A DNA stretch of 64,000 nucleotides from NCBI GenBank assembly GCA_000004985.1, contig GG738886.1; one strand, written 5' to 3'. A program made the translations under genes and the position numbers. This document shows, one piece after another, positions 39,530 through 50,573 of this stretch. The stretch comes from Naegleria gruberi (taxonomy: Eukaryota). The notes under the pieces are model-generated. The model was not told the origin of the DNA and ran no database searches. It saw only the letters and a program-made list of their open reading frames with translations. Every line of letters begins with the position of its first letter. The first letter of the stretch is position 1.

Positions 39530-39803
39530 TTTTTTGTGATGTTTGAAAGGAAATTAAATGCAAGCTTGAAAAGTATTAGATTGGAAAATTAACATTTTGA
39601 TGCTGCTTTTCCGATCATTAATATTTAAAATATTGTAATGTTTTAATATTATTAATATTTAATTTAATACTTTTAAAAAGCAAGAACAATGAACCATGTT
39701 CTCCAAAATTACATGATCCTACGTTCTATGATTACAAAGTTATTGATGAACAAATCAAAAAAAGAACAACAATAGTAGTAATACAATCATCATCATCACC
39801 AAC

Positions 39804-41558
39804 ATGGGAAATACACAACAGTCAAAGCCTGGTGGCCATTCTTCAATGAAGGGAATTTCTTCATCAACTTCCGTATCTAATAAGAGCAATAGTGAGGTTC
39901 CTCCCTCACAGAAATCAAAGCTTCCCTTGGAGAATATAATTACCTGTTTTAATGTTGAAGAAGGACCACTCTTCATATCTAAAGAAGCAAGAAATTATAA
40001 AGCCAGCTCGTTGAATCAGCACTCCATCTTGGATTTGAGAACAAATCAAAGGCTATTAGAGATTTTACAGAAGAGAATTAAATTACCAACAACAACACTG
40101 GAAAATAGCAATCCTAATGATAATATACAAGTATCAATGGTGATAATAGTGGTGCAAATGTTGTAAATGCTGATCAGAATGAGGAAAATAATAATGAAGA
40201 TCATCTGTTATCGGAAGAGTTATTATTGCTTTCTGAATATAAAAAGACGATAACAGAGAGGGTGAAACGATTCTATTTGGATGAAAGTGTTATGGGGGTG
40301 GAGGAAGAAAGAGCATTTGCTTGCTTGTTGGGATTAATGATTGGCGATGCTTGTGGAGCTCCACAAGAATTTTCATGGTATAAAGTACCTCCAAAGGTTT
40401 CATCTGAATCTGAATGGTTAGTTGACAAGATTTGGAAGCAGGATAAGGAATTTTTCGAGTTGACCTCAATGAATGATGAGCATGTTTGGAAAAAGCCACA
40501 CCATAACAAGTTCTTTTTGAAAGTTGGTCAATTTACTGATGATTCCAGTATGGTAGGTAGTAATATTCATTTGTTTGCAATTCTAATTTCATAATCATCA
40601 AAAATTATAGGCCTTGTGTGTTATGGATACACTAGTACAAAAGGTAATTGATGAAATTCATCAAAGGGAATGTCTTAATGCGGAGCAAAATAATGAAAAC
40701 TCGTTCAATTTTGATGGAAGAGAAATGAGACTTAGATTCCTCAATTGGGTTTATTTTGGATATAATAACACATTTGGAAAGGATGATTCAACACCTGGAT
40801 ATGGATCATCATGTGGATTGGGTTCAAATGTCAGAAGTTCCATTGTTGAGTTTATGAAAGATCCTAAAAGTGAGTTAACAAATGCAGGCGATTTAAATAC
40901 TTCTGGAAATGGAAGTATAATGAGATTAGCTCCTGTGCCAATATTTTGTTTGAAACTTGTGGAGAGTTTGGATAATACCGAACAAGTGGAATCTGCTTTA
41001 AGGATGGCTCACAAGCACAGCAAGACAACTCATCAAGGTGATGAAGCAGCAGAGCTTTGCAGGTTAATGACTTTCATAATTATTAATGCTGCCAAAGCTG
41101 CACACTCTATGAAACCACTCGAAATCAAAAAGCACATCTTTGACTTGTTGGAGAGTGGGAAATTCCAAAGCACTGTGGAGAGTGTCAATTGTCTTGTAAA
41201 GAGTCAAGTTGAAAATGGAAATGTAGAGGCAAGAAATTGGAATTGGAAAGATTTAAACTATCAGTATTGTCCTGAAAGAGCAGAAAAGGATAAGGGATAC
41301 ATTGGTTCGTATGCAATGGATGCTATGGCTATGGCCTTACATAATTTGGCTTTTACAGACTCATTTGAGGATGCCATCTTGCTGACTGCTAACATAGCCG
41401 GTGATTCAGACACAGTATCTGCCATTGTTGGACAGATGGCAGGAGCAATTTATGGGCTAAAGGCTGTTCCATTAGACTGGATTGAAAAGGTTTTATTCTG
41501 GGATTACAATGAGGATATTTTATTGAGATTATCAATTATTTATAATCATAATTTTTAA
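39804..41558 (+). CDS. ADP-ribosylglycohydrolase (ARH/DraG family) with N-terminal MGNTQQS myristoylation motif; join(39804..40130,40178..40552,40611..41558)
   Basis: ARH motifs FACLLGLMIGDACGAPQEF, SGNGSIMRLAPV and ANIAGDSDTVSAIVGQMAGAIYG. Introns of 47 nt (40131..40177) and 58 nt (40553..40610), both GTA..AG. Confidence 0.75.
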
Positions 41559-41625
41559 TTATTTACAAATTAGTTTACAATTATTCGTCATTATCTGACC
41601 AATAAGCTGTGGAATAAGATAAGTT
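41452..41625. repeat. Copy 1 of a ~160-bp direct repeat (3' end of the ARH CDS plus the convergent 3' end region)
   Basis: About 92% identical to 43166..43335. It covers the last 35 codons of the ARH gene (IYGLKAVPLDWIEKVLFWDYNEDILLRLSIIYNHNF*) and, on the other strand, a relic C-terminus ...SDNDE*. Confidence 0.8.
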
Positions 41626-41718
41626 TTGTAATCGTGAAATTAATTCGACGATTAAAACTATTTTAGTTATGAAAATTATGAATAGGAAAAGAATTTATTC
41701 GAATTCTCTGACATTACA

Positions 41719-43020
41719 TTAAATACCATATTTAAACCAATTATATAAAAGAGAAGATAATTTTACAGTTTGAAAGAACCATTCTTCACTTTGTAATACC
41801 GAAGAAACGATAGAAAATTCACGAAGTAATAATCGAACAGATTGATCTGAAATCATTCGATTTCTAATATGATTTTGCACAATATTTGGAAATGACAAGT
41901 TTTCAATGTTAAAAACAATTGCTTCCTCAATTGAATCATCCCACAATTTTCTTAACTTTCCTATGAATCCAAGGGTCTCTCCACTGTTCAAACAATCCTG
42001 TTTCATCAAATATTCACAATGATTCCCAATTTTAGAAAGAGCAGGATTTGAATCATTCCTCATATCGACGAATGCAAACAGAAAAAATAATGGATGTAAT
42101 AGAATGGGATCTTCAACTGTTTCCAAGAATGAATATTGACCACCTGAAAATAATTCTTCACCTCTTTTCTCTAATCTATTATATTTACATGCCATATCTA
42201 GTGTCATTTCAGGAAATTCCTCAAATCTCAATTGAATATATCTGATTAAAATATTATTAACTGCCAGTTTGGGATCAAACTTATCTAGAATTTCAAGAAA
42301 TAGTGTTGGGTAATTGCAGTTCAGAAAATAACAGCTGGATAAATTGAAGGTCTTGAAGTGTTTTTTTGGTTTGCCAAAGTTCGCAAACAAAATGATTCTT
42401 TCATCCTTTTGAGGAGATTGATTATGAAATTGTGTTCCAATAACATAATATGACCCATCGTCTGGAATATTAGAGACCAATAATTGAGAATAGTTCCATT
42501 TTGAGTCATAACTTGAAATTACATGATCTGAAATTTGTTCTGTGCAATCAGATTGTTCATGGAGAGTAAAGCTCTTCTTGGCTCTATTAGAAAATATCCA
42601 ATCTAAACTAATGAAAGAACGAGTTTCTTCCTTTTCTTTTTGTAATATCATCTTTGCACCCAATGTATTTTCGAATATGTAAGTGCCATTGATATGTTCT
42701 TCCAGAGCCCAAACAGTTTTATCAGAATTTCTAAAGTAAATTACTGGTTCTTGTTTTTCCTTAGCCATTGAGGTAATCTTCATCCTATCAACAACCGAAA
42801 CCATTCCAAATTTCATTGGTGAGGAGGTTGTTCCGTAAGGAATTCCATAATTTACAATGTTGCATAGTTGTGAAACAGGAACATGCTCTCCACAATCTAA
42901 TATTGCCAAAACCGTATAACAACTCTCATCAACACACTTCTCTAAAATCATTGGTTTCGCGTTGGTTACAGATGATGTTTGTGTGGCTTGCTTCCTTTTC
43001 CTTAATTCTTGTTGCTGCAT
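41719..43020 (-). CDS. Hypothetical protein (433 aa), single exon, located between the two repeat copies
   Basis: Intact ORF with its ATG at 43020. No recognised domain. Confidence 0.4.
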   Translation of the reverse strand: MQQQELRKRKQATQTSSVTNAKPMILEKCVDESCYTVLAILDCGEHVPVSQLCNIVNYGIPYGTTSSPMKFGMVSVVDRMKITSMAKEKQEPVIYFRNSDKTVWALEEHINGTYIFENTLGAKMILQKEKEETRSFISLDWIFSNRAKKSFTLHEQSDCTEQISDHVISSYDSKWNYSQLLVSNIPDDGSYYVIGTQFHNQSPQKDERIILFANFGKPKKHFKTFNLSSCYFLNCNYPTLFLEILDKFDPKLAVNNILIRYIQLRFEEFPEMTLDMACKYNRLEKRGEELFSGGQYSFLETVEDPILLHPLFFLFAFVDMRNDSNPALSKIGNHCEYLMKQDCLNSGETLGFIGKLRKLWDDSIEEAIVFNIENLSFPNIVQNHIRNRMISDQSVRLLLREFSIVSSVLQSEEWFFQTVKLSSLLYNWFKYGI

Positions 43021-43165
43021 TTTTTATTTGCTACATTATGTTTTTGATTCTTAGTGTAGTAAGTTACTATTCTATTCTGACTGAGGGAAAAACTCAACAC
43101 AATTCTTTCATTTCAGATAAGAAATGCTGGAAACAGTCATCTTCATTGATTCCAATCTAAAGTGA

Positions 43166-43335
43166 AAAAATTTATTGGCTTGAGGCTGTGCCATTTGACT
43201 GGATTGAAAAGGTTTTATTATGGGATTACAATGAGGACATTTTATTGAGATTATCAATTATTTACAATCATAATTTTTAATTATTTACAATTTAGTTTAC
43301 AATTATTCGTCAGCATCTGAGCAATAATCTGTGGA
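43166..43335. repeat. Copy 2 of the ~160-bp direct repeat
   Basis: Aligns to 41452..41625 with one 1-nt indel. The ARH-tail reading frame is preserved (WLEAVPFDWIEKVLLWDYNEDILLRLSIIYNHNF*) although no ARH gene lies upstream. Its far end forms the genuine 3' end (CSDADE*) of the histone-fold gene at 43303..43857. Confidence 0.8.
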
Positions 43336-43857
43336 ATAGTCACTATCATCATTCTTTGCCATATCTTTCACTGCATCAACGGTAGTGCCATTGTAAACAG
43401 TAATATTCCACAATCGTTTGGAACATTGGTTGATGGTTTGGAAGGTGATTTGCTTCTTCTTATTGTATTGTGTGATTATAGAAGCATCTCTCATCAGCTC
43501 ACCCAACAGTTGATCAAACATTTCTCTTGCCTTTTCATAAACGTCTGCTGAAATTCTCTTGCATCCATGAATTTTGGCAATTTTCTGGATTGACGCCTTC
43601 TTTAAAATTCCTTTTGGTTTCTCCTTCTCAGGTTCAGTCTTCTCACTACTAGATTTTCTAATGGATTTTGATGGGGTAGATGTTGCAGATGTTTTCTTCT
43701 CCGGTTTTGGTGCCTTTGCACTTGAAGATGATGCTGTAGGTGTTGTCTTTGGTGTGGTTATTGTGTCCTTGCTTGATTTTTTGGCCTTCGGAGTGGTTGT
43801 TTCTGGTTTCACAGTTTGAGGGTGTCTTGGACTCTTTTGTGCTTGCTTTGGAGGCAT
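43303..43857 (-). CDS. Histone-fold protein with H4-like fold, Lys/Pro/Thr/Ser-rich N-terminal tail and acidic C-terminus
   Basis: CKRISADVYEKAREMFDQLLGELMRDASIITQYNKKKQITFQTINQCSKRLWNITVYNG aligns position by position with histone H4 ([59 protein letters not shown]). The ATG is at 43857 (MPPKQAQK...). Confidence 0.5.
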   Translation of the reverse strand: MPPKQAQKSPRHPQTVKPETTTPKAKKSSKDTITTPKTTPTASSSSAKAPKPEKKTSATSTPSKSIRKSSSEKTEPEKEKPKGILKKASIQKIAKIHGCKRISADVYEKAREMFDQLLGELMRDASIITQYNKKKQITFQTINQCSKRLWNITVYNGTTVDAVKDMAKNDDSDYSTDYCSDADE

Positions 43858-44079
43858 TTTTTTAATTTGTTTTTGATGGCAAAAGTTATTTTTGTTCTTG
43901 TAGAAATTCGAACCAAAAACATGGATTTTTGTTTTGGAAACAAACTTGTGCGATAAACAAGCCATTGTGATTAATAGTACTTTCCTTATGTGTGGAAGCA
44001 CAACAGTTAGCACCAGTGAAAACAATGAGGATTTTTACCTGAAGTTTTACAATGAAAATAAAGTGCTGTGATAAAAAGT

Positions 44080-47000
44080 TTATTCGTAAACCTCAGCAAA
44101 GATAGTGTTGGAACGACCAAATATTTCTGGTGAGTACATTTCTTCACATTTGGTTGGTGGAATAATGAAGGATCCGATTTGAGTGGCACGACACAAATGT
44201 TTGAAAGTGTGAGTTCCTTCCCAGAGCAAACTGGAGAATGCTTCAACACGTTCATCTCTACTATTGACATGTTCATACCATGGATAGTTCCACCAACATC
44301 TAGATTTCTTAACTTCACCTGAAGGAGCGTTACCTTTCAATTCAGGATTAATTGGTTCCAAACCAGCAGGTAAAAAGTCAACCAAAGCAACATGATAACG
44401 TCTACTGGTATTAGTGAATGTAATGATAACTCTAACCAATTCACCAGCTTTAAATTTCCAACAGTTTCTTGCCTTATCAAATTGAGCATGAGATGGATCA
44501 GTAACACCCTCATAGCTTCTCTCAATTTGGAATCCATAATCAAGAGCTGGTAATAATAAATTCTTAGGAGCATAGTCCATTCCAATTCTATAGTACAATC
44601 TACCAGGACCTTCCTTCAAGATGGCCAATGTTTGTGCACCTTCAGTGGTAGTAAGTTGTCTCATTGGAATAGTAAGAACATTTTCATCCTTATTTCTTCC
44701 CTTGAAAACTTGTTCTCCACAATAATCTTCTCCAAGCCACATCTTGGCAGTGAAATCAGGAGTGACACCTTCAAAGACATGGAAATAACTGTTGAGAGCA
44801 AGAAGGATGAAAACATTTTCTTGAGTATTGCCCCATCTTCCCTTCTTCTTATGAGCTAAAAGTCCCTTGACAACCTTTGGAATGAGATTATTTTGTGGTA
44901 CCATATGAATGAGCATTTCCAAACAAATTCCATCAGTTCTTCTATCACTGTGCAACATGATAAGCTTGCTGCTTTGCTCATCTCCATAGCTTGTAACAAA
45001 GTTGGCTGTTTGAGCAGTTTCATTGACTCTCATTAAAATATAATTCACAATTTCAGTCGATTTTGTTGTGGCTTCCTTTCCATTGGCAAAGAACATTGCT
45101 GAAGCAGTCCAAGACAAAGTTTCAAGACAAGTATCCTTCAATCCACATTCTGAATATAATTGGTCAGCTTTTTGTTTGGCTCTTGAATCTCCCAATAGGG
45201 CGGCAACATAATAAGCATATGATCTAATGGCATATTTTGATGAAGGAGAGTAATATGTATCACGAATATAATTCTCAATATCACAGAGGAAATTAGTGAG
45301 TTTGGAAACAACATTATTATTGAGAGAATAACCTGCAATCTTGGCTCTAGCAAAGGCATGACCTACGTGGCAAGAAAGGTAAGGACTGACTGAATAATCA
45401 CTTCTGTAAGTCCACCATCCGAATCCACCATTTGGAAATTGTCTTCCATTCAAAATACCCAACGATAATTGTACAGTAGAGTTAAGCATAATTGAGCTTG
45501 GAATATCCTTGACCTTGAATGCTTGAAGTACATCCTTGAGAGCAACAATTGATAAAATCTTACTTGACAATTGTTCACAACATTCAAAGGAATAGTTGTA
45601 AACATAAAGGAAGGCATCAGTCAAGGCAGACAATGCTGTACTACTGGTAGTGATTTGTAAGCCACCAAATTGAGGATAGATATTTTCTGGAGCCTTAACT
45701 GGTTGGAATGTAGTGCAATCACCATCCAATTCACCATAATGAGCAAATGCTTCTGTGGTTGCTGGTGTGAATACTCTGAGTTCCTTTTCAACAGCATCAG
45801 AAAAGTTGATCAATTCGGAAACAGAAACAGCAACTTGGAATTTAGAAATACCAACCTTGGTTGCTTGCATTGGGAATCTCAATTCAGCTCTCTTAAGAGC
45901 AGGGATTTTAACATTCAAACCTCTCTTGGATGGATCCAACAATTCGAGTCCATCATAGGCAACAGCAATATGAACATTCAAATCAATAAGGGTTTGATTT
46001 TGTAAAACACAAGCAAATTCTGCCTTATCACCAAAGTTCAAAAATCTTGGAAGGGAAGGTCTAATTGCTAGTGGCAATTGTGCAACAATTGAAGATTCTC
46101 CCAAGCCGTACAAACTATCTAGTTTGGTAGAAACAGCTGTAATTCTGTATCTCGTCAAATTGTCAGGTAATTTGAATGGCACTCTGGCCTTGCCTTGAGC
46201 ATCTGTTACACATACTGGACTAAAGACAGCAACTGGATTGAAATTCTTTCTGACAACAATGGCAGATCCAACTTCCTCACCTCCTTCACATCCACCAGCA
46301 TCGTCATTACATTCTTCGCACTCTTTTTCCTCACATCTCTTTTTGGATTTCTTACAACTTTTCCTTTCTTGCACTTCTTCTTGGCAATCACAATCATCAT
46401 AACAACAACAGGAACGACATAAACATCCTTCACACTTGCAACATTCACATTCATCATCATCACATTCTTCCTCATCAGAACTATCTTCAGGAGGAGATTG
46501 AATGTTGATATTATCAAAACTCTTGACAAATACGTGGTCTCTCAATGAGAACTCTGAGAAGCTTTGGCCAGTACCAACTATGAATGTGCTCAAAGGATTA
46601 GATATTCTATAGCCAGTCAATGAAAGAACAGCTTCATCAACAGCAACGAGACAAACCTCACTTCCAGCTTGTGGTTTAGAGTTTTCCTTGTCAGTTACCA
46701 AAACATCAACAAAGGTCTCAACACCTGGAGTAACAAATTGCTTCTCTGGAGTGACCAATACATCGAGTTGATGCACTTTGGATGAGACACCAATATAACA
46801 AGTTCCATTTGCGTACGCAGGTTGTTTTGGGAGGTCGAGAGGTAATCCAAGAGAATCACTTCTTGATTCACTACCTTGGAGCATTACACTAACTGTTACA
46901 TTTGGAATGTGTTCTTTGGTAATTTTGAGAGTGAATTCAGTTGATCCAACTTCTGGATCAATGGTGATTGGAATATTATCGATTACAGAATTGAGGCAAA

Positions 47001-50000
47001 CAGTAACAACACCATTAGCCTTACCGTCGAATGGAGATTGAATCAAAATTTTGGCTTCTTCTCCAATTTCATACATTCCTTTGTCTGCAACCAAGAGGGC
47101 TTGTTGCTTTGAAAGTCTTGAACCAACAACATCCTTCTTTGATTTACCACCAGTTACGTATAGGGAGTTATTTGAAGAGTTAGTTAAACCGGTTTCTGTA
47201 TCCTTAATTCTCAATGTGAACTTGTAGTTACCACCCTTATCGAAACTAATAGGATATTTGACTGGTTCAGATTCAGACTTGAATACCTTCTTGAAAACTT
47301 CAACAGATTCATGAACAACACTGAACCCCTTCTTCTTTTCAACGGTTGTTGTAGCAACCAGTTCCATATCAATACCAGGAATAGTATTACCTTCAAGATC
47401 AGTGGTAACCATGAATAAATTGGTTTGAACATTTGGTTTAACAAACATCTTTTCAATCTTCATTCCACAATAATATTTGCAAGGGTGAACAGTAAATGTA
47501 GTGGAATCATTAATAGTTTGACGATTAATATCTTGAACCGATGTTTCAACAGTAATGTTCATTGGAGATTTCTCTTGTCTTTCGGTTTCATCGAAGAGGA
47601 TTGCAATTTCATGTTCACCATCAGAATTACAAACACCTTCAAATGTAACTGGTTTGTAATTTTCACTTCCATAAGTATCATAACACCAATAACGATAAAA
47701 TGGATTTGAGATGTAAGTGGAGAAGTTGAAACCAGAAAAGTTTGGTGGGGTATAACTTGTCTTTGATTGTTTGATAACATAGGAACACTTTGAACCAGAG
47801 AGACCTCCACCTGAGTAGTATGCTGCTTGGGTCTTGAGAATTGTTAAGTTATTAACAATATATCTGCATGGTGGGACAGATGTTGAGACTGTAAATTCTG
47901 GAGTACGGAACTCTTGTACATTAAAGTTTGTATGCATTGTCCTACCGTTGAACTCAATGGAATGAGAGCCCAAGTTAACATTGTCTGGAATTGAAAACTT
48001 AATATCAAAGGAACCATGTTCTGAGATGGTGTATTTTCCAGTGTGATATTTTGCACCTCTAGAATCTTTAACAATGTATTCATAAGTTCCCTTTTTTGGT
48101 AGAGTTGGAATAGTTCTTGATCCGTACTTTTCAACCTTGAGTTCTCTACAAATACCCTTGATGAAAATCTCTTCTCCAGGTTTATAGAGTCCTCTATCGT
48201 TGAAAATATTATATGCTAATCTATCATCAATTCTGTAGTGATAAAGGTATAAATCTGGAATAAAGCAGGTATCATTCAAATAAGATCCAATCAGTGTATA
48301 TTCACTTCCGTTTGAGGTGTGACTAAGAACAGCAATTCCTGTTTCAGAGTCTGGTTTTGTGCTAAATGATGGAAGGAATTTCTTTTGTTTGAAACTAACA
48401 TCAGATTTGATGACAGTTCCATCAATTAAAGAATTGGCCCAACAGTAAACATTACCTGTTCGTGTATCGAAAAAGCCATCCATTGCCATCTTTGTCACCT
48501 GAATCCAGGAAATGTAAACTGGTCTGTATTTCCAATTATCTTTCCAATGTGTTTTGGATGGTTCAACTGCAACCAAAAGTTGACCTAACATGTCATTTGG
48601 ATGTTGTAAGTATTGGGTCAAGTCAATTTCTGTATCAACTGGTTCATCTGGTTGACCATTGGTATTTACCATAGTGTCAAGAACTTTTTTTCCAGAAAGA
48701 GATAATGTTGCATTGGAATAAGCATCATAGTAGAAAACATTGTTTGAATAATCACCTGGTTTAACTTGATAAACTTGGACATGGATAGCTTCAAGATTTA
48801 CACTGAATACGGAGAAGGATGGTTTAGTATTGACAGTAGGATCAATAACCATCATTCCGGTCTTGTAGGCTTGTAAAGATTGAGCTGCTGGTCCAACTTG
48901 GAAAGTAAAGTTATTTTCTCCTGCAAGTTTTTGTCCCCAAACATCTGTTATTTGACCAGAGAGTTGAACTTGGTATGTGGTACGTCCCTTAATATTACCA
49001 GATATTGTCAAGTAATTTCCAGATGGATTAATACGTAATCTTTCAATAGGTGGTTGAATACTTATATGTTCCTCATTTAATAATTCAATATCAATATTAT
49101 TACTAAATGTGAAAGAGAATGGTTCCAATGGAAGCTTTCCACCAGTATGGGAAGTAACTTTGAATTCTGGATAGTTTGTAGCTGTGAAGGAAATATCTTT
49201 TTCTGTTCTCAAAGGACCTTCAATAGATCTGGCTCCTTGCAATAATGTTATAGCGAGGGTTTCTGACAGGGCTACTCTCCTACTTGCTACATCAATTTCA
49301 ATCCAAACATGTCTATTTGGAGCAGAATTTTCCAATTTGTAATTTACAGAATTGTACAATGAGGATGATCTCTTTTCCAATGAAGATTCTTTAAGCTTTC
49401 CTTCAATATAACTCTTTACAACTGAAGTACGGCCATCATTTTGAACCAGCTTGCAAGAGTATCCAGGTATATTTACACTAGAAAAGATTTGGTTTGGATC
49501 AATATCTTGATCAAACTCCATATAAACAAATGGAAATTCGTTAATTGGAACTGCATGGTAACTATTTGGAAGATAGTTGAGCATTGTCAATCTAGGTGTT
49601 TCAAATTTAAAGGAAACATTCTTATCCAATACTCCTCCAACACTAGACTTGGTTTTTTCACAATCAATAGTGACTGTGTATTCCGTAGACATGTCAAATC
49701 TATAATTTGGTTCAAAGAATAAAGTCTTTGCACCCATCCATCTAAATCTACCACCATTCTTTGGGAATGGTTCAATTTTTACAAAAGAAAAATCTTGATC
49801 ATGAACATCTTCAACACCAGACACAGCAACCATTGGCTGAGAGAATGTGATGGAAATATGTGGCACTGATCGATCAACTGGACCTTCTGGCAAATATCTC
49901 ACCACTGCCAAACTTGATCCCAACAATGCTTCTTCTTCCTTTCTCACTTGTTCTGGTTTTTCCAATTTCTCTTCTGGTGGGAATGGAATTTCATTAACAT

Positions 50001-50334
50001 CAGCACTTCTTGGAGGTTTGAGGGTTTTTTCTCTCATGAAAAAGTCACCTTCTTCTGATGTTGATTTTTGAATTTGTGGCAATCTGGCCAATAATTTCTC
50101 TGTCAATTCATCACCAAGAGATTCAACACTTGCACCACTCTTTTGATCCTCATCCTTCTTGACAGAAGTTGCCTTTGATCCAAGTAAAATCATGGCAGTA
50201 GAATCTTCAGGTGTTGGCTCCCTAACATGAATATTCAACCCAACAGTGTAATCTTCATTATTTGCACCAAGAATGCTTGTCTCACTGCAAGGTTCCTCCT
50301 CTTCATAATCCATATCATCATCATAAAACACCAT
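44080..50334 (-). CDS. Alpha-2-macroglobulin/thioester-containing protein family member, single exon about 2085 aa
   Basis: Thioester-like region NYSFECCEQLSSKILSIVAL (CxEQ in place of GCGEQ). The thioester-domain region FPNGGFGWWTYRSDYSVSPYLSCHVGHAFARAKIAG and the domain order fit the A2M family. The acidic N-terminus (MVFYDDDMDYEEEEP) has no signal peptide. Confidence 0.8.
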   Translation of the reverse strand: MVFYDDDMDYEEEEPCSETSILGANNEDYTVGLNIHVREPTPEDSTAMILLGSKATSVKKDEDQKSGASVESLGDELTEKLLARLPQIQKSTSEEGDFFMREKTLKPPRSADVNEIPFPPEEKLEKPEQVRKEEEALLGSSLAVVRYLPEGPVDRSVPHISITFSQPMVAVSGVEDVHDQDFSFVKIEPFPKNGGRFRWMGAKTLFFEPNYRFDMSTEYTVTIDCEKTKSSVGGVLDKNVSFKFETPRLTMLNYLPNSYHAVPINEFPFVYMEFDQDIDPNQIFSSVNIPGYSCKLVQNDGRTSVVKSYIEGKLKESSLEKRSSSLYNSVNYKLENSAPNRHVWIEIDVASRRVALSETLAITLLQGARSIEGPLRTEKDISFTATNYPEFKVTSHTGGKLPLEPFSFTFSNNIDIELLNEEHISIQPPIERLRINPSGNYLTISGNIKGRTTYQVQLSGQITDVWGQKLAGENNFTFQVGPAAQSLQAYKTGMMVIDPTVNTKPSFSVFSVNLEAIHVQVYQVKPGDYSNNVFYYDAYSNATLSLSGKKVLDTMVNTNGQPDEPVDTEIDLTQYLQHPNDMLGQLLVAVEPSKTHWKDNWKYRPVYISWIQVTKMAMDGFFDTRTGNVYCWANSLIDGTVIKSDVSFKQKKFLPSFSTKPDSETGIAVLSHTSNGSEYTLIGSYLNDTCFIPDLYLYHYRIDDRLAYNIFNDRGLYKPGEEIFIKGICRELKVEKYGSRTIPTLPKKGTYEYIVKDSRGAKYHTGKYTISEHGSFDIKFSIPDNVNLGSHSIEFNGRTMHTNFNVQEFRTPEFTVSTSVPPCRYIVNNLTILKTQAAYYSGGGLSGSKCSYVIKQSKTSYTPPNFSGFNFSTYISNPFYRYWCYDTYGSENYKPVTFEGVCNSDGEHEIAILFDETERQEKSPMNITVETSVQDINRQTINDSTTFTVHPCKYYCGMKIEKMFVKPNVQTNLFMVTTDLEGNTIPGIDMELVATTTVEKKKGFSVVHESVEVFKKVFKSESEPVKYPISFDKGGNYKFTLRIKDTETGLTNSSNNSLYVTGGKSKKDVVGSRLSKQQALLVADKGMYEIGEEAKILIQSPFDGKANGVVTVCLNSVIDNIPITIDPEVGSTEFTLKITKEHIPNVTVSVMLQGSESRSDSLGLPLDLPKQPAYANGTCYIGVSSKVHQLDVLVTPEKQFVTPGVETFVDVLVTDKENSKPQAGSEVCLVAVDEAVLSLTGYRISNPLSTFIVGTGQSFSEFSLRDHVFVKSFDNINIQSPPEDSSDEEECDDDECECCKCEGCLCRSCCCYDDCDCQEEVQERKSCKKSKKRCEEKECEECNDDAGGCEGGEEVGSAIVVRKNFNPVAVFSPVCVTDAQGKARVPFKLPDNLTRYRITAVSTKLDSLYGLGESSIVAQLPLAIRPSLPRFLNFGDKAEFACVLQNQTLIDLNVHIAVAYDGLELLDPSKRGLNVKIPALKRAELRFPMQATKVGISKFQVAVSVSELINFSDAVEKELRVFTPATTEAFAHYGELDGDCTTFQPVKAPENIYPQFGGLQITTSSTALSALTDAFLYVYNYSFECCEQLSSKILSIVALKDVLQAFKVKDIPSSIMLNSTVQLSLGILNGRQFPNGGFGWWTYRSDYSVSPYLSCHVGHAFARAKIAGYSLNNNVVSKLTNFLCDIENYIRDTYYSPSSKYAIRSYAYYVAALLGDSRAKQKADQLYSECGLKDTCLETLSWTASAMFFANGKEATTKSTEIVNYILMRVNETAQTANFVTSYGDEQSSKLIMLHSDRRTDGICLEMLIHMVPQNNLIPKVVKGLLAHKKKGRWGNTQENVFILLALNSYFHVFEGVTPDFTAKMWLGEDYCGEQVFKGRNKDENVLTIPMRQLTTTEGAQTLAILKEGPGRLYYRIGMDYAPKNLLLPALDYGFQIERSYEGVTDPSHAQFDKARNCWKFKAGELVRVIITFTNTSRRYHVALVDFLPAGLEPINPELKGNAPSGEVKKSRCWWNYPWYEHVNSRDERVEAFSSLLWEGTHTFKHLCRATQIGSFIIPPTKCEEMYSPEIFGRSNTIFAEVYE

Positions 50335-50573
50335 TTTCTCTCCTATTAAAATTAAATAAAAATTATAATTATCAATCAAAAGAATGTTGCTGTATTTTTT
50401 TTGATCTGTTGGGAGTTGGAGATCGGCACCTATTTTATGCCTGTTCGGATGAACTTGTGTGGATAAGGAGGCGAACAGGGAATCATTAAAAGGAAGAACA
50501 TAATGAGCATTTCAAGATGTAATAACTCTCATTGTGTGAATGGCACACTGAGAGTAATTGATGAACGAAAAAT

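Follow-up and report, generated by a model that had tools for sequence, protein, structure and literature searches.

A gene-bearing segment between two copies of a convergent gene junction in Naegleria gruberi: a probable single insertion with a 170-bp target-site duplication

The window considered here, a stretch of 64,000 nt from contig GG738886.1 of Naegleria gruberi NEG-M (GenBank assembly GCA_000004985.1), harbors an ADP-ribosylglycohydrolase (ARH) gene on the plus strand, followed on the minus strand by a gene for an orphan protein of 433 aa, a gene for a protein with a histone H4-like fold (HF), and a gene of the alpha-2-macroglobulin (A2M) family (Table 1). The assignment of ARH to its Pfam family is based on a score of 117.8 bits at a curated cut-off of 26.2. 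The annotated ARH protein (P0127, 524 aa) matches the gene and ends with IIYNHNF; its last intron (40553-40610) is confirmed and has a length of 58 nt. The tail of ARH is conserved in the orthologues of N. fowleri and N. lovaniensis, and Gly491 is invariant across six ARH orthologues. The HF protein matches histone H4 chains of the PDB over residues 70-149 (phmmer, E=3e-8), while the Pfam models Histone, CBFD_NFYB_HMF and TAF remain below threshold (E 0.1-0.6). Its N-terminal half is rich in S, T, P and K, and the protein carries an acidic tail.

Table 1. Coordinates of the genes and repeat copies at the locus (positions within the 64,000-nt window).
Feature	Position	Strand	Content or basis
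ARH gene NAEGRDRAFT_70795, ADP-ribosylglycohydrolase	39804..41558	+	Pfam PF03747, E=9e-34; last exon 40611-41558
R1, left copy of the duplication	41447..41616		functional ARH tail 41447-41558, spacer 41559-41580, HF-tail relic 41581-41616
Segment U, complete gene unit, 1552 nt	41617..43168	-	missing from the orthologous site in a related Naegleria (L001)
Orphan gene NAEGRDRAFT_70796, XP_002674148.1, 433 aa	41719..43020	-	100% match to P0001
R2, right copy of the duplication	43169..43338		ARH-tail relic 43169-43280, spacer 43281-43302, functional HF tail 43303-43338
HF gene NAEGRDRAFT_70797, 184 aa, histone H4-like fold	43303..43857	-	phmmer against PDB histone H4
A2M-family gene, right-side synteny anchor	44080..50379	-	Pfam bMG10, A2M_BRD, A2M, MG2

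The orphan gene is bordered by two direct repeat copies, R1 and R2, of 170 nt each, which align without gaps at an offset of 1722 nt and differ at 13 positions (92.4% identity). A first-pass annotation made from the sequence had described a repeat of about 92% identity at 41452..41625 and 43166..43335; the repeat itself was confirmed and its limits were corrected by a few bases. No other direct repeat in the window reaches 60 nt, so the match is not due to chance. R1 contains the closing 112 nt of the last ARH exon, with the final 36 codons (rather than the 35 first counted) and the stop, and on the minus strand a relic of the HF tail ending with YWSDNDE and a stop, as had been noticed. Conversely, R2 contains an ARH-tail relic whose frame is still open (IYWLEAVPFDWIEKVLLWDYNEDILLRLSIIYNHNF and a stop) and on the minus strand the working C-terminus of HF, which ends with DYCSDADE, stop included; this part of the initial description was borne out as well. 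The stop codons of ARH and HF are separated by 22 nt in both copies and not by about 60 bp as had been estimated. Likewise, the value of 1.7 kb given for the inserted segment corresponds to the repeat period of 1722 nt, and the unique, gene-bearing stretch between the copies comprises 1552 nt. In the sense of HF, AATAAA hexamers are located at 43214 and 43241 within the ARH-tail sequence of R2, at positions that are conserved in the related Naegleria described below. If AAUAAA is used in Naegleria, as we presume, the duplication would have kept these 3′ signals.

The unique segment U is positioned exactly between the two complete repeat copies and consists of a 3′ flank of 102 nt (41617-41718), the coding sequence, and a 5′ flank of 148 nt (43021-43168). 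With a GC content of 0.32 and a GC3 of 0.26 the coding sequence resembles the host genes, and the probability of an open frame of 433 codons arising by chance at the local base composition is 5e-15. U lacks terminal inverted repeats (in inverted orientation, its first and last 60 nt match over 6 nt at best), terminal direct repeats, a tRNA and any Rfam match. No Pfam domain was detected in the orphan protein at E<=5 and no sequence match in the PDB at E<=10, and the AlphaFold model calculated from the single sequence (pLDDT 35) is unusable.

Among 1.84 billion representative proteins, the sole credited relative of the orphan protein is a fragment (P0122, 83% identical) encoded on contig L005 from a metagenome; the word-indexed protein search is not exhaustive, as it returned the orphan itself only and missed this fragment. 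A bacterial protein (P0123) reached E=1e-11, summed from eight weak stretches in a repetitive region, and was treated as spurious. Scans of IMG/VR and JGI metagenomes yielded no relatives of the orphan, a DNA pattern specific for the repeat had no match in the JGI metagenomes, and look-ups of the exact sequences of the orphan protein and the ARH exon-2 ORF gave no additional contigs. By tblastn, nothing significant was obtained at the loci of N. fowleri and N. lovaniensis. A second copy of U is absent from the window and no paralogue of the orphan occurs among the N. gruberi database proteins, so that the paralogue search proposed with the first-pass annotation led to a diverged relative and not to a donor locus, neither in the window, nor among these proteins, nor in the contigs recovered. 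Literature searches with the locus tags and with the run and project accessions found nothing.

The relative on L005 is a second, truncated and anciently diverged copy of the orphan gene, located beside a gene of the P0124 family, which is missing from the NEG-M proteome. A relationship between the orphan and the P0124 family was considered and rejected (hhalign probability 0.1%). The two orphan copies differ by a dS of about 0.33 with an omega of 0.2; thus, the orphan family predates the insertion and has been under selection. Judging from this substitution pattern, the predicted orphan is a real gene under selection and not a de novo or spurious ORF, and the searches described above indicate that it is specific to the N. 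gruberi group. At a dS of 0.33, the L005 copy is far more diverged than would be expected of a direct donor.

The orthologous locus was compared in a related Naegleria, represented by the Logan contig L001. In this contig, ARH is followed by a spacer of 21 nt, the HF orthologue (1293-1871) and the A2M gene, which is collinear between the window and positions 2150-3161 of L001 as well as with contig L009 from the metagenome. There is a single junction and no gene for the 433-aa protein, which confirms the ancestral arrangement that had been postulated, i.e. converging ARH and HF genes whose junction is now duplicated around a gene-bearing insert. L001 contains the ARH intron and hence represents genomic DNA; this empty site is known from one contig of one sequencing run, and L001 is quite diverged from N. 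gruberi (dS 0.6-1.4). N. fowleri and N. lovaniensis were unsuitable as further controls, since in both species an AMP-binding gene and not HF follows the ARH orthologue.

Within the 112-nt ARH tail, R1 and R2 agree with each other and differ from L001 at 17 sites, compared with three sites for each of the other two groupings. R1 and R2 are therefore sisters relative to L001, and the duplication is younger than the split from the L001 lineage; it would have arisen in the N. gruberi lineage. The same data could be read in the opposite direction if the arrangement were older than this split, U and one repeat copy had been lost from L001 by recombination between R1 and R2, and gene conversion had made the two copies look like sisters. 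Recombination of this kind would leave exactly one junction behind, and three sites at which R2 of the metagenome strain shows the state of R1 could indicate some conversion. However, with 17 shared derived sites against three and three, conversion would have to be almost complete, unconverted sites lie among the putatively converted ones, and no protein similar to the orphan was recovered from the L001 organism in a search that was not exhaustive. A loss in L001 is thus regarded as highly improbable, and a gain in N. gruberi is preferred.

Further information on timing was provided by a second strain, known from the metagenome contigs L005 and L009, which is more than 99% identical to the window (dS 0.005-0.012). 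L005 contains the junction of R1 and U, and L009 the junction of U and R2, both identical to NEG-M. Since both junctions are common to the two strains, the insertion predates the split of the metagenome strain from NEG-M. L005 departs from the NEG-M sequence at 42333 and runs on into an unrelated gene, so the structure of the insert is not uniform among strains. This could be taken to mean that whole gene units repeatedly enter and leave the junction of ARH and HF, by an uncharacterised process that needs no transposase and doubles about one nucleosome length (170 nt) of the target. The payloads between the two junctions, an intact orphan gene in NEG-M and the truncated copy with its P0124-family neighbour in the metagenome strain, would then represent successive cassette exchanges and not an assembly artefact; we consider this distinctly unlikely.

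The second strain also helps to trace the fate of the repeat copies. In the ARH-tail part, the polarisable differences between R1 and R2 are mostly derived in R2, and R2 of the metagenome strain (L009) carries a 2-nt deletion that shifts the frame of the relic. In the HF-tail part, NEG-M and the metagenome strain share all four differences; of these, only 41591 can be polarised, and here R1 shows the derived state. Hence, the redundant remnants, of the HF tail in R1 and of the ARH tail in R2, have probably been decaying in a complementary fashion since the insertion.

As a different explanation for the open relic, it had been proposed that R2 serves as an alternative 3′-terminal exon of ARH, with the orphan gene nested in a 1.7-kb intron. 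In line with this, the relic has an open frame of 36 codons and is preceded by an AG dinucleotide (43161-43162), and four of the eight differences from R1 are synonymous (chance P=0.044). Two of these four (CTA/CTT and TAT/TAC), however, arose in the functional copy R1, and an open frame was retained in 55% of simulations with random substitutions. In addition, the invariant Gly491 is replaced by Trp in the relic of NEG-M, the frameshifting deletion is found in a strain at a dS of only about 0.01, and the whole arrangement is missing in L001. The annotated ARH model ends in R1, and the confirmed ARH intron measures only 58 nt. Almost no credence is left for an exon function, and the reading of R2 as a decaying relic is retained.

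Taken together, the locus is most probably explained by a single insertion in the lineage of N. gruberi, during which a gene-bearing fragment of 1552 nt without the hallmarks of a transposon or retroposon entered along with a target-site duplication of 170 bp. This explanation is supported by the empty site in the relative, the sisterhood of R1 and R2, the junctions shared with the second strain, the loss of the relic frame, and the absence of marks of mobile elements. In the ancestral state, ARH and HF would have converged with 22 nt between their stop codons, so that the 3′ untranslated region of each gene ran into the coding tail of the other. A complete, host-like gene specific to the N. 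gruberi group would then have been inserted with its own short flanks, and the 170 nt covering both gene ends would have been duplicated on either side, leaving ARH and HF each with a full C-terminus and the original downstream sequence. At so tight a junction, presumably only insertions that duplicate both 3′ ends would be tolerated. The repeat is accordingly read as a product of the insertion and not as its mediator, the role it had been given at first.

A duplication in more than one step was also considered. That a larger block was duplicated in tandem is ruled out, as U has no similarity to the sequence after R2. Alternatively, a tandem duplication restricted to the 170-bp junction might have been followed by insertion of U into its dispensable middle, and small tandem duplications are indeed common. 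Yet U lies exactly at the boundary of two complete and ungapped copies, which for a later, independent insertion would be a coincidence of about 1 in 170; both copies being complete with U exactly between them argues for one event. Campbell-type integration is a variant of this scheme, as a single crossover with a circle carrying the repeat and U gives exactly the order repeat-insert-repeat, but the circle must already have carried this 170-nt junction, and no second source of the repeat is present in the window. Both variants together are judged very unlikely in comparison with the single insertion.

Regarding the type of insertion, the duplication of 170 nt contrasts with the short and fixed duplications of 2-11 bp left by cut-and-paste transposons, and the sole ORF contains no Pfam domain at E<=5. 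Retroposition deserves closer consideration. U would then be a copy of a processed mRNA made by target-primed reverse transcription of the LINE type, with the second-strand nick at a distance of 170 nt from the first. This process yields variable and occasionally very long target-site duplications. The composition of U (148 nt, an intronless coding sequence and 102 nt) corresponds to the size of an mRNA, and long duplications are documented for retroelements (PMC5488345). Since introns are missing from most Naegleria genes, their absence here tells nothing either way. Against retroposition, the 3′ junction (41617) lacks an A-rich tract in both strains, and neither NEG-M nor L005 has a run of A or T at 41617-41718. 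Furthermore, no reverse-transcriptase ORF was noticed in a six-frame ORF listing of the region from 38 to 47 kb (a listing and not a domain search), and the truncated L005 copy is the sole relative in place of a parental gene. A poly(A) tract may, however, have decayed after the insertion; overall, we consider retroposition unlikely.

An insertion during the repair of a chromosomal break fits the locus better, and L001 presents the unoccupied orthologous site with one copy of the target. Most likely, a staggered break with nicks about 170 nt apart on opposite strands would have been repaired by filling both overhangs, and the fragment with the gene would have entered as filler, by capture or by copying. 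Equivalently, replication might have switched template to the donor, copied it and returned at a point 170 nt upstream. We infer this molecular route from its footprint.

The locus provides an unusually clean natural example of a compact eukaryotic genome accepting a new gene between convergent genes with overlapping 3′ ends. Owing to the long target duplication, both neighbours come away with a separate version of the end they had shared, after which the superfluous halves decay in a complementary manner. In addition, the arrival of a lineage-specific orphan gene, whose family is older and has been under selection, is dated, and the presence or absence of the insertion can serve as a simple marker in the N. 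gruberi species complex. As a footprint it is clean, but it represents fairly ordinary gene movement and reveals no new class of element or mechanism.

Among the closest known systems is gene movement in which gene-bearing fragments serve as filler when double-strand breaks are repaired (Wicker, Buchmann and Keller 2010, Genome Res; as described in PMC3445842). As in the cases described there, a non-collinear fragment carrying a gene with its own flanks occupies a site that is empty in a relative, duplicated target sequence lies on either side, and transposon termini are absent. Those cases come from large plant genomes, are often located near transposon activity and have identifiable donors, whereas U is found in a compact protist genome, with overlapping convergent 3′ ends as the target, a duplication of 170 nt and no known donor. 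Target-site duplications of 111 and 250 bp are documented around HERV-K HML-2 insertions (PMC5488345); these resemble the present case as one-off insertions with a duplication far above the canonical length of the element, which points to widely staggered cuts. In contrast to the recognisable proviruses and LTRs inserted there, U has neither LTRs nor an integrase or reverse transcriptase, and its orphan gene looks cellular. Like U, processed retrogenes made by LINEs are solitary gene copies without introns, placed at a new site and flanked by a duplication, but U shows neither a poly(A) remnant nor an identified parent, and its 5′ flank of 148 nt may be a promoter and not a 5′ untranslated region. 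Finally, polymerase theta end joining and template switching by MMBIR/FoSTeS likewise produce the order repeat-insert-repeat, with the duplicated length set by the overhang or the re-entry point; the templated inserts of these pathways usually comprise tens of bases, compared with the 1.5-kb gene found here.

Reading of the sequence at 40200-44400 together with repeat finding revealed an ungapped direct repeat of 170 nt, whose left copy R1 (41447-41616) and right copy R2 (43169-43338) are offset by 1722 nt and differ at 13 positions (92.4% identity). This is the sole direct repeat of at least 60 nt within the 64-kb window and confirms the observation made in the first-pass annotation. The earlier description of duplicated 3' ends of an ADP-ribosylglycohydrolase gene (ARH) and a histone-fold gene (HF) holds overall, apart from coordinates that were a few bases off and a spacer of 22 nt instead of about 60. 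The annotated ARH C-terminus (...IIYNHNF) falls inside R1. Both copies are complete and the inserted segment U lies exactly between them, a pattern more in line with one event than with tandem duplication and a separate, unrelated insertion. The architecture is that of a target-site duplication.

Features of the ARH/HF locus and of related contigs
Feature	Window	Other contig	Strand	Length	Remarks
ARH, NAEGRDRAFT_70795			+	524 aa	ADP-ribosylglycohydrolase, Pfam PF03747 match
NAEGRDRAFT_70796 (orphan)	41719-43020		-	433 aa	
HF, NAEGRDRAFT_70797	43303-43857		-	184 aa	Right-hand neighbor
A2M gene	44080-50379		-		Alpha-2-macroglobulin family, next gene right of HF
Repeat part 1			+	112 nt	Last 36 codons and stop of ARH
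Repeat part 2				22 nt	Spacer
Repeat part 3			-	36 nt	Stop and last 11 codons of HF
U	41617-43168			1552 nt	102-nt 3' flank, 1302-nt CDS, 148-nt 5' flank
Collinear block 1	40275-41589	L001 1-1301			
Collinear block 2	43169-43673	L001 1160-1660			
Collinear block 3	44079-45084	L001 2150-3161			
P0124-family gene		L005 2-1207	-	402 aa	N-terminal part, beyond the orphan fragment

The names of the three locus genes were taken from a cluster look-up. The 433-aa frame showed 100% identity to a Naegleria gruberi predicted protein. Residues 70-149 of HF match PDB histone H4 chains (E=3e-8), and all matches to Pfam histone-type models were sub-threshold. Besides this H4-like fold, the protein has a long N-terminal half rich in Ser, Thr, Pro and Lys, and its tail is acidic. 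The adjacent A2M protein (2099 aa) is of the bacterial type with bMG10, A2M_BRD, A2M and MG2 domains, and has a striking Cys/Asp/Glu-rich insert (…DDECECCKCEGCLCRSCCCYDDCDCQEE…) around its bait region. The first exon of ARH (39804-40166, plus strand) begins with MGNTQQSK, a possible N-myristoylation start; the corresponding proteins of N. fowleri and N. lovaniensis begin with MGQ...

The composition of U is host-like (GC 0.32, GC3 0.26; GC3 of the A2M gene 0.27), and the chance of a 433-codon open frame at this base composition is 5e-15. The encoded protein has no Pfam match and no PDB relative. Neither terminal inverted nor terminal direct repeats were present at the ends of U, tRNA and Rfam searches of the segment were negative, and U thus carries no recognizable mark of a mobile element. 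Retroposition of U is possible, although its poly(A) hallmark, sought at the 3' junction, is missing.

Outside N. gruberi, the ARH protein has its best match (89% identity) in a Logan protein of 311 aa, encoded on L001, a 3161-bp contig of a related Naegleria (run SRR25266757). The position of the 58-nt ARH intron of the window is likewise occupied by an intron in this contig, which therefore represents genomic DNA. L001 shares three collinear blocks with the window and contains a single ARH/HF junction: the stop codon of ARH ends at 1271 and that of the HF orthologue starts at 1293, so that both genes converge with 21 nt between them, and the 433-aa gene is absent from between them. This empty site supports the initial main reading, namely a gene-bearing insert between duplicated copies of the ARH/HF junction. 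Within the 112-nt ARH tail, R1 and R2 agree with each other against L001 at 17 sites, whereas R1 and R2 each agree with L001 at three, which places duplication and insertion on the N. gruberi branch after its split from the L001 lineage (dS 0.6-1.4). HF evolves fast between these species (dN 0.34, omega 0.31 against the orthologue at L001 1293-1871, minus strand). At the depth of N. fowleri (contig L002) and N. lovaniensis (contig L004) the synteny of the ARH locus is not kept, and ARH converges there on an AMP-binding enzyme gene, not on HF. The N. fowleri locus also contains, about 3 kb upstream, a piggyBac-type DDE_Tnp_1_7 ORF (L002 5948-6895).

Two contigs of ENA metagenome ERZ929261, L005 and L009, derive from a strain that barely differs from the window (dS 0.005-0.012 in ARH, HF and A2M). 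L009 spans 43134-47888 at 99.1% identity, including the last 35 nt of U, R2 and an identical HF protein, while L005 spans 39741-42333 with ARH, R1 and the same R1/U junction, and the event is therefore older than the split of the two strains. The suggestion that R2 serves as an alternative 3' terminal exon of ARH is rejected. The ARH-tail relic, the redundant half-copy in R2, has lost its frame in L009 through a 2-nt deletion; in the window, the Gly of the IYG motif, invariant in 6/6 ARH orthologues compared, is replaced by Trp. In 55% of simulations, eight random substitutions left the frame of the relic open, and of the four synonymous differences between R1 and R2, two originated in the functional copy. 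Polarized changes in the ARH tail fall mainly in R2. All four differences in the HF tail are common to both strains, and at site 41591, the sole one polarizable against L001, R1 has the derived state. To the extent that polarization is possible, the differences are consistent with complementary decay of the relics in R1 and R2. When NEG-M is compared with the metagenome strain, non-coding sequences (43858-44079, 43169-43302) show 3-5% differences plus indels, compared with only 0.5-1.2% at synonymous sites of ARH, HF and A2M, pointing either to constrained synonymous sites or to unusually mutable intergenic DNA. In L005, the first ARH exon has an insertion of 19 nt and a substitution level of 2.2%, far above the rest of the gene.

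Divergence between the window and L005 is 0-2% over 39741-41781 and rises abruptly to 11.2% over 41781-42333, where a frameshift of 1 nt and two deletions (33 nt and 3 nt) also occur, before similarity stops sharply at 42333. On the contig, this divergent stretch and the sequence beyond it occupy L005 1-2210. Across about 180 codons of the latter stretch, dS is 0.31-0.34, dN 0.07 and omega 0.2, values that indicate long purifying selection as judged from the codon changes. Since this dS exceeds the divergence of the two strains 30-60 times, the fragment is not the strain's orthologue of NAEGRDRAFT_70796; it is another member of the orphan family that diverged anciently and is now truncated and frameshifted. 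The adjoining P0124-family gene has no Pfam domain and no relation to the orphan was found. Orthologues with 42% identity are FDP41_012010 of N. fowleri and C9374_001073 of N. lovaniensis; the former encodes 680 aa and sits among several consecutive domain-less genes of 629-1074 aa. The protein search returned no NEG-M match, and NEG-M may thus lack the gene or its annotation. L005 reflects either ectopic exchange of the insert with a paralogous locus, which may be native, or an assembly chimera, which would span the 101-nt identical stretch 41681-41781. Under both readings, the orphan family is older than the insertion and has been under selection, which argues against de novo origin and against a first entry of the gene into the lineage with this insertion.

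To our knowledge, target-site duplications made by any transposase are far shorter than 170 nt. Two routes appear to fit the insertion of U best: a gene-bearing fragment would have been captured or copied at a break with staggered ends of about 170 nt, both overhangs being filled in, or replication would have switched template to the donor, copied it and resumed 170 nt upstream. Because the stop codons are only 22 nt apart, the downstream signals of ARH and HF would each fall within the neighboring gene. On the HF-sense strand, the ARH tail contains AATAAA hexamers 57 and 84 nt beyond the stop codon of HF; both occur at matching positions of L001 and are kept in R2. They are candidate signals, provided that Naegleria uses AAUAAA. 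A simple insertion would separate one or both genes from such downstream sequences, and the long duplication may have survived because both genes keep their candidate signals.

Overall, the locus provides a well-documented case of lineage-specific gene insertion, in which the target-site duplication is unusually long. The event is of a known type, to which it adds a new instance: plants offer documented cases of gene-bearing filler DNA in double-strand-break repair (Wicker et al. 2010, as summarized in PMC3445842), and some HERV-K insertions are flanked by duplications of 111 and 250 bp (PMC5488345).
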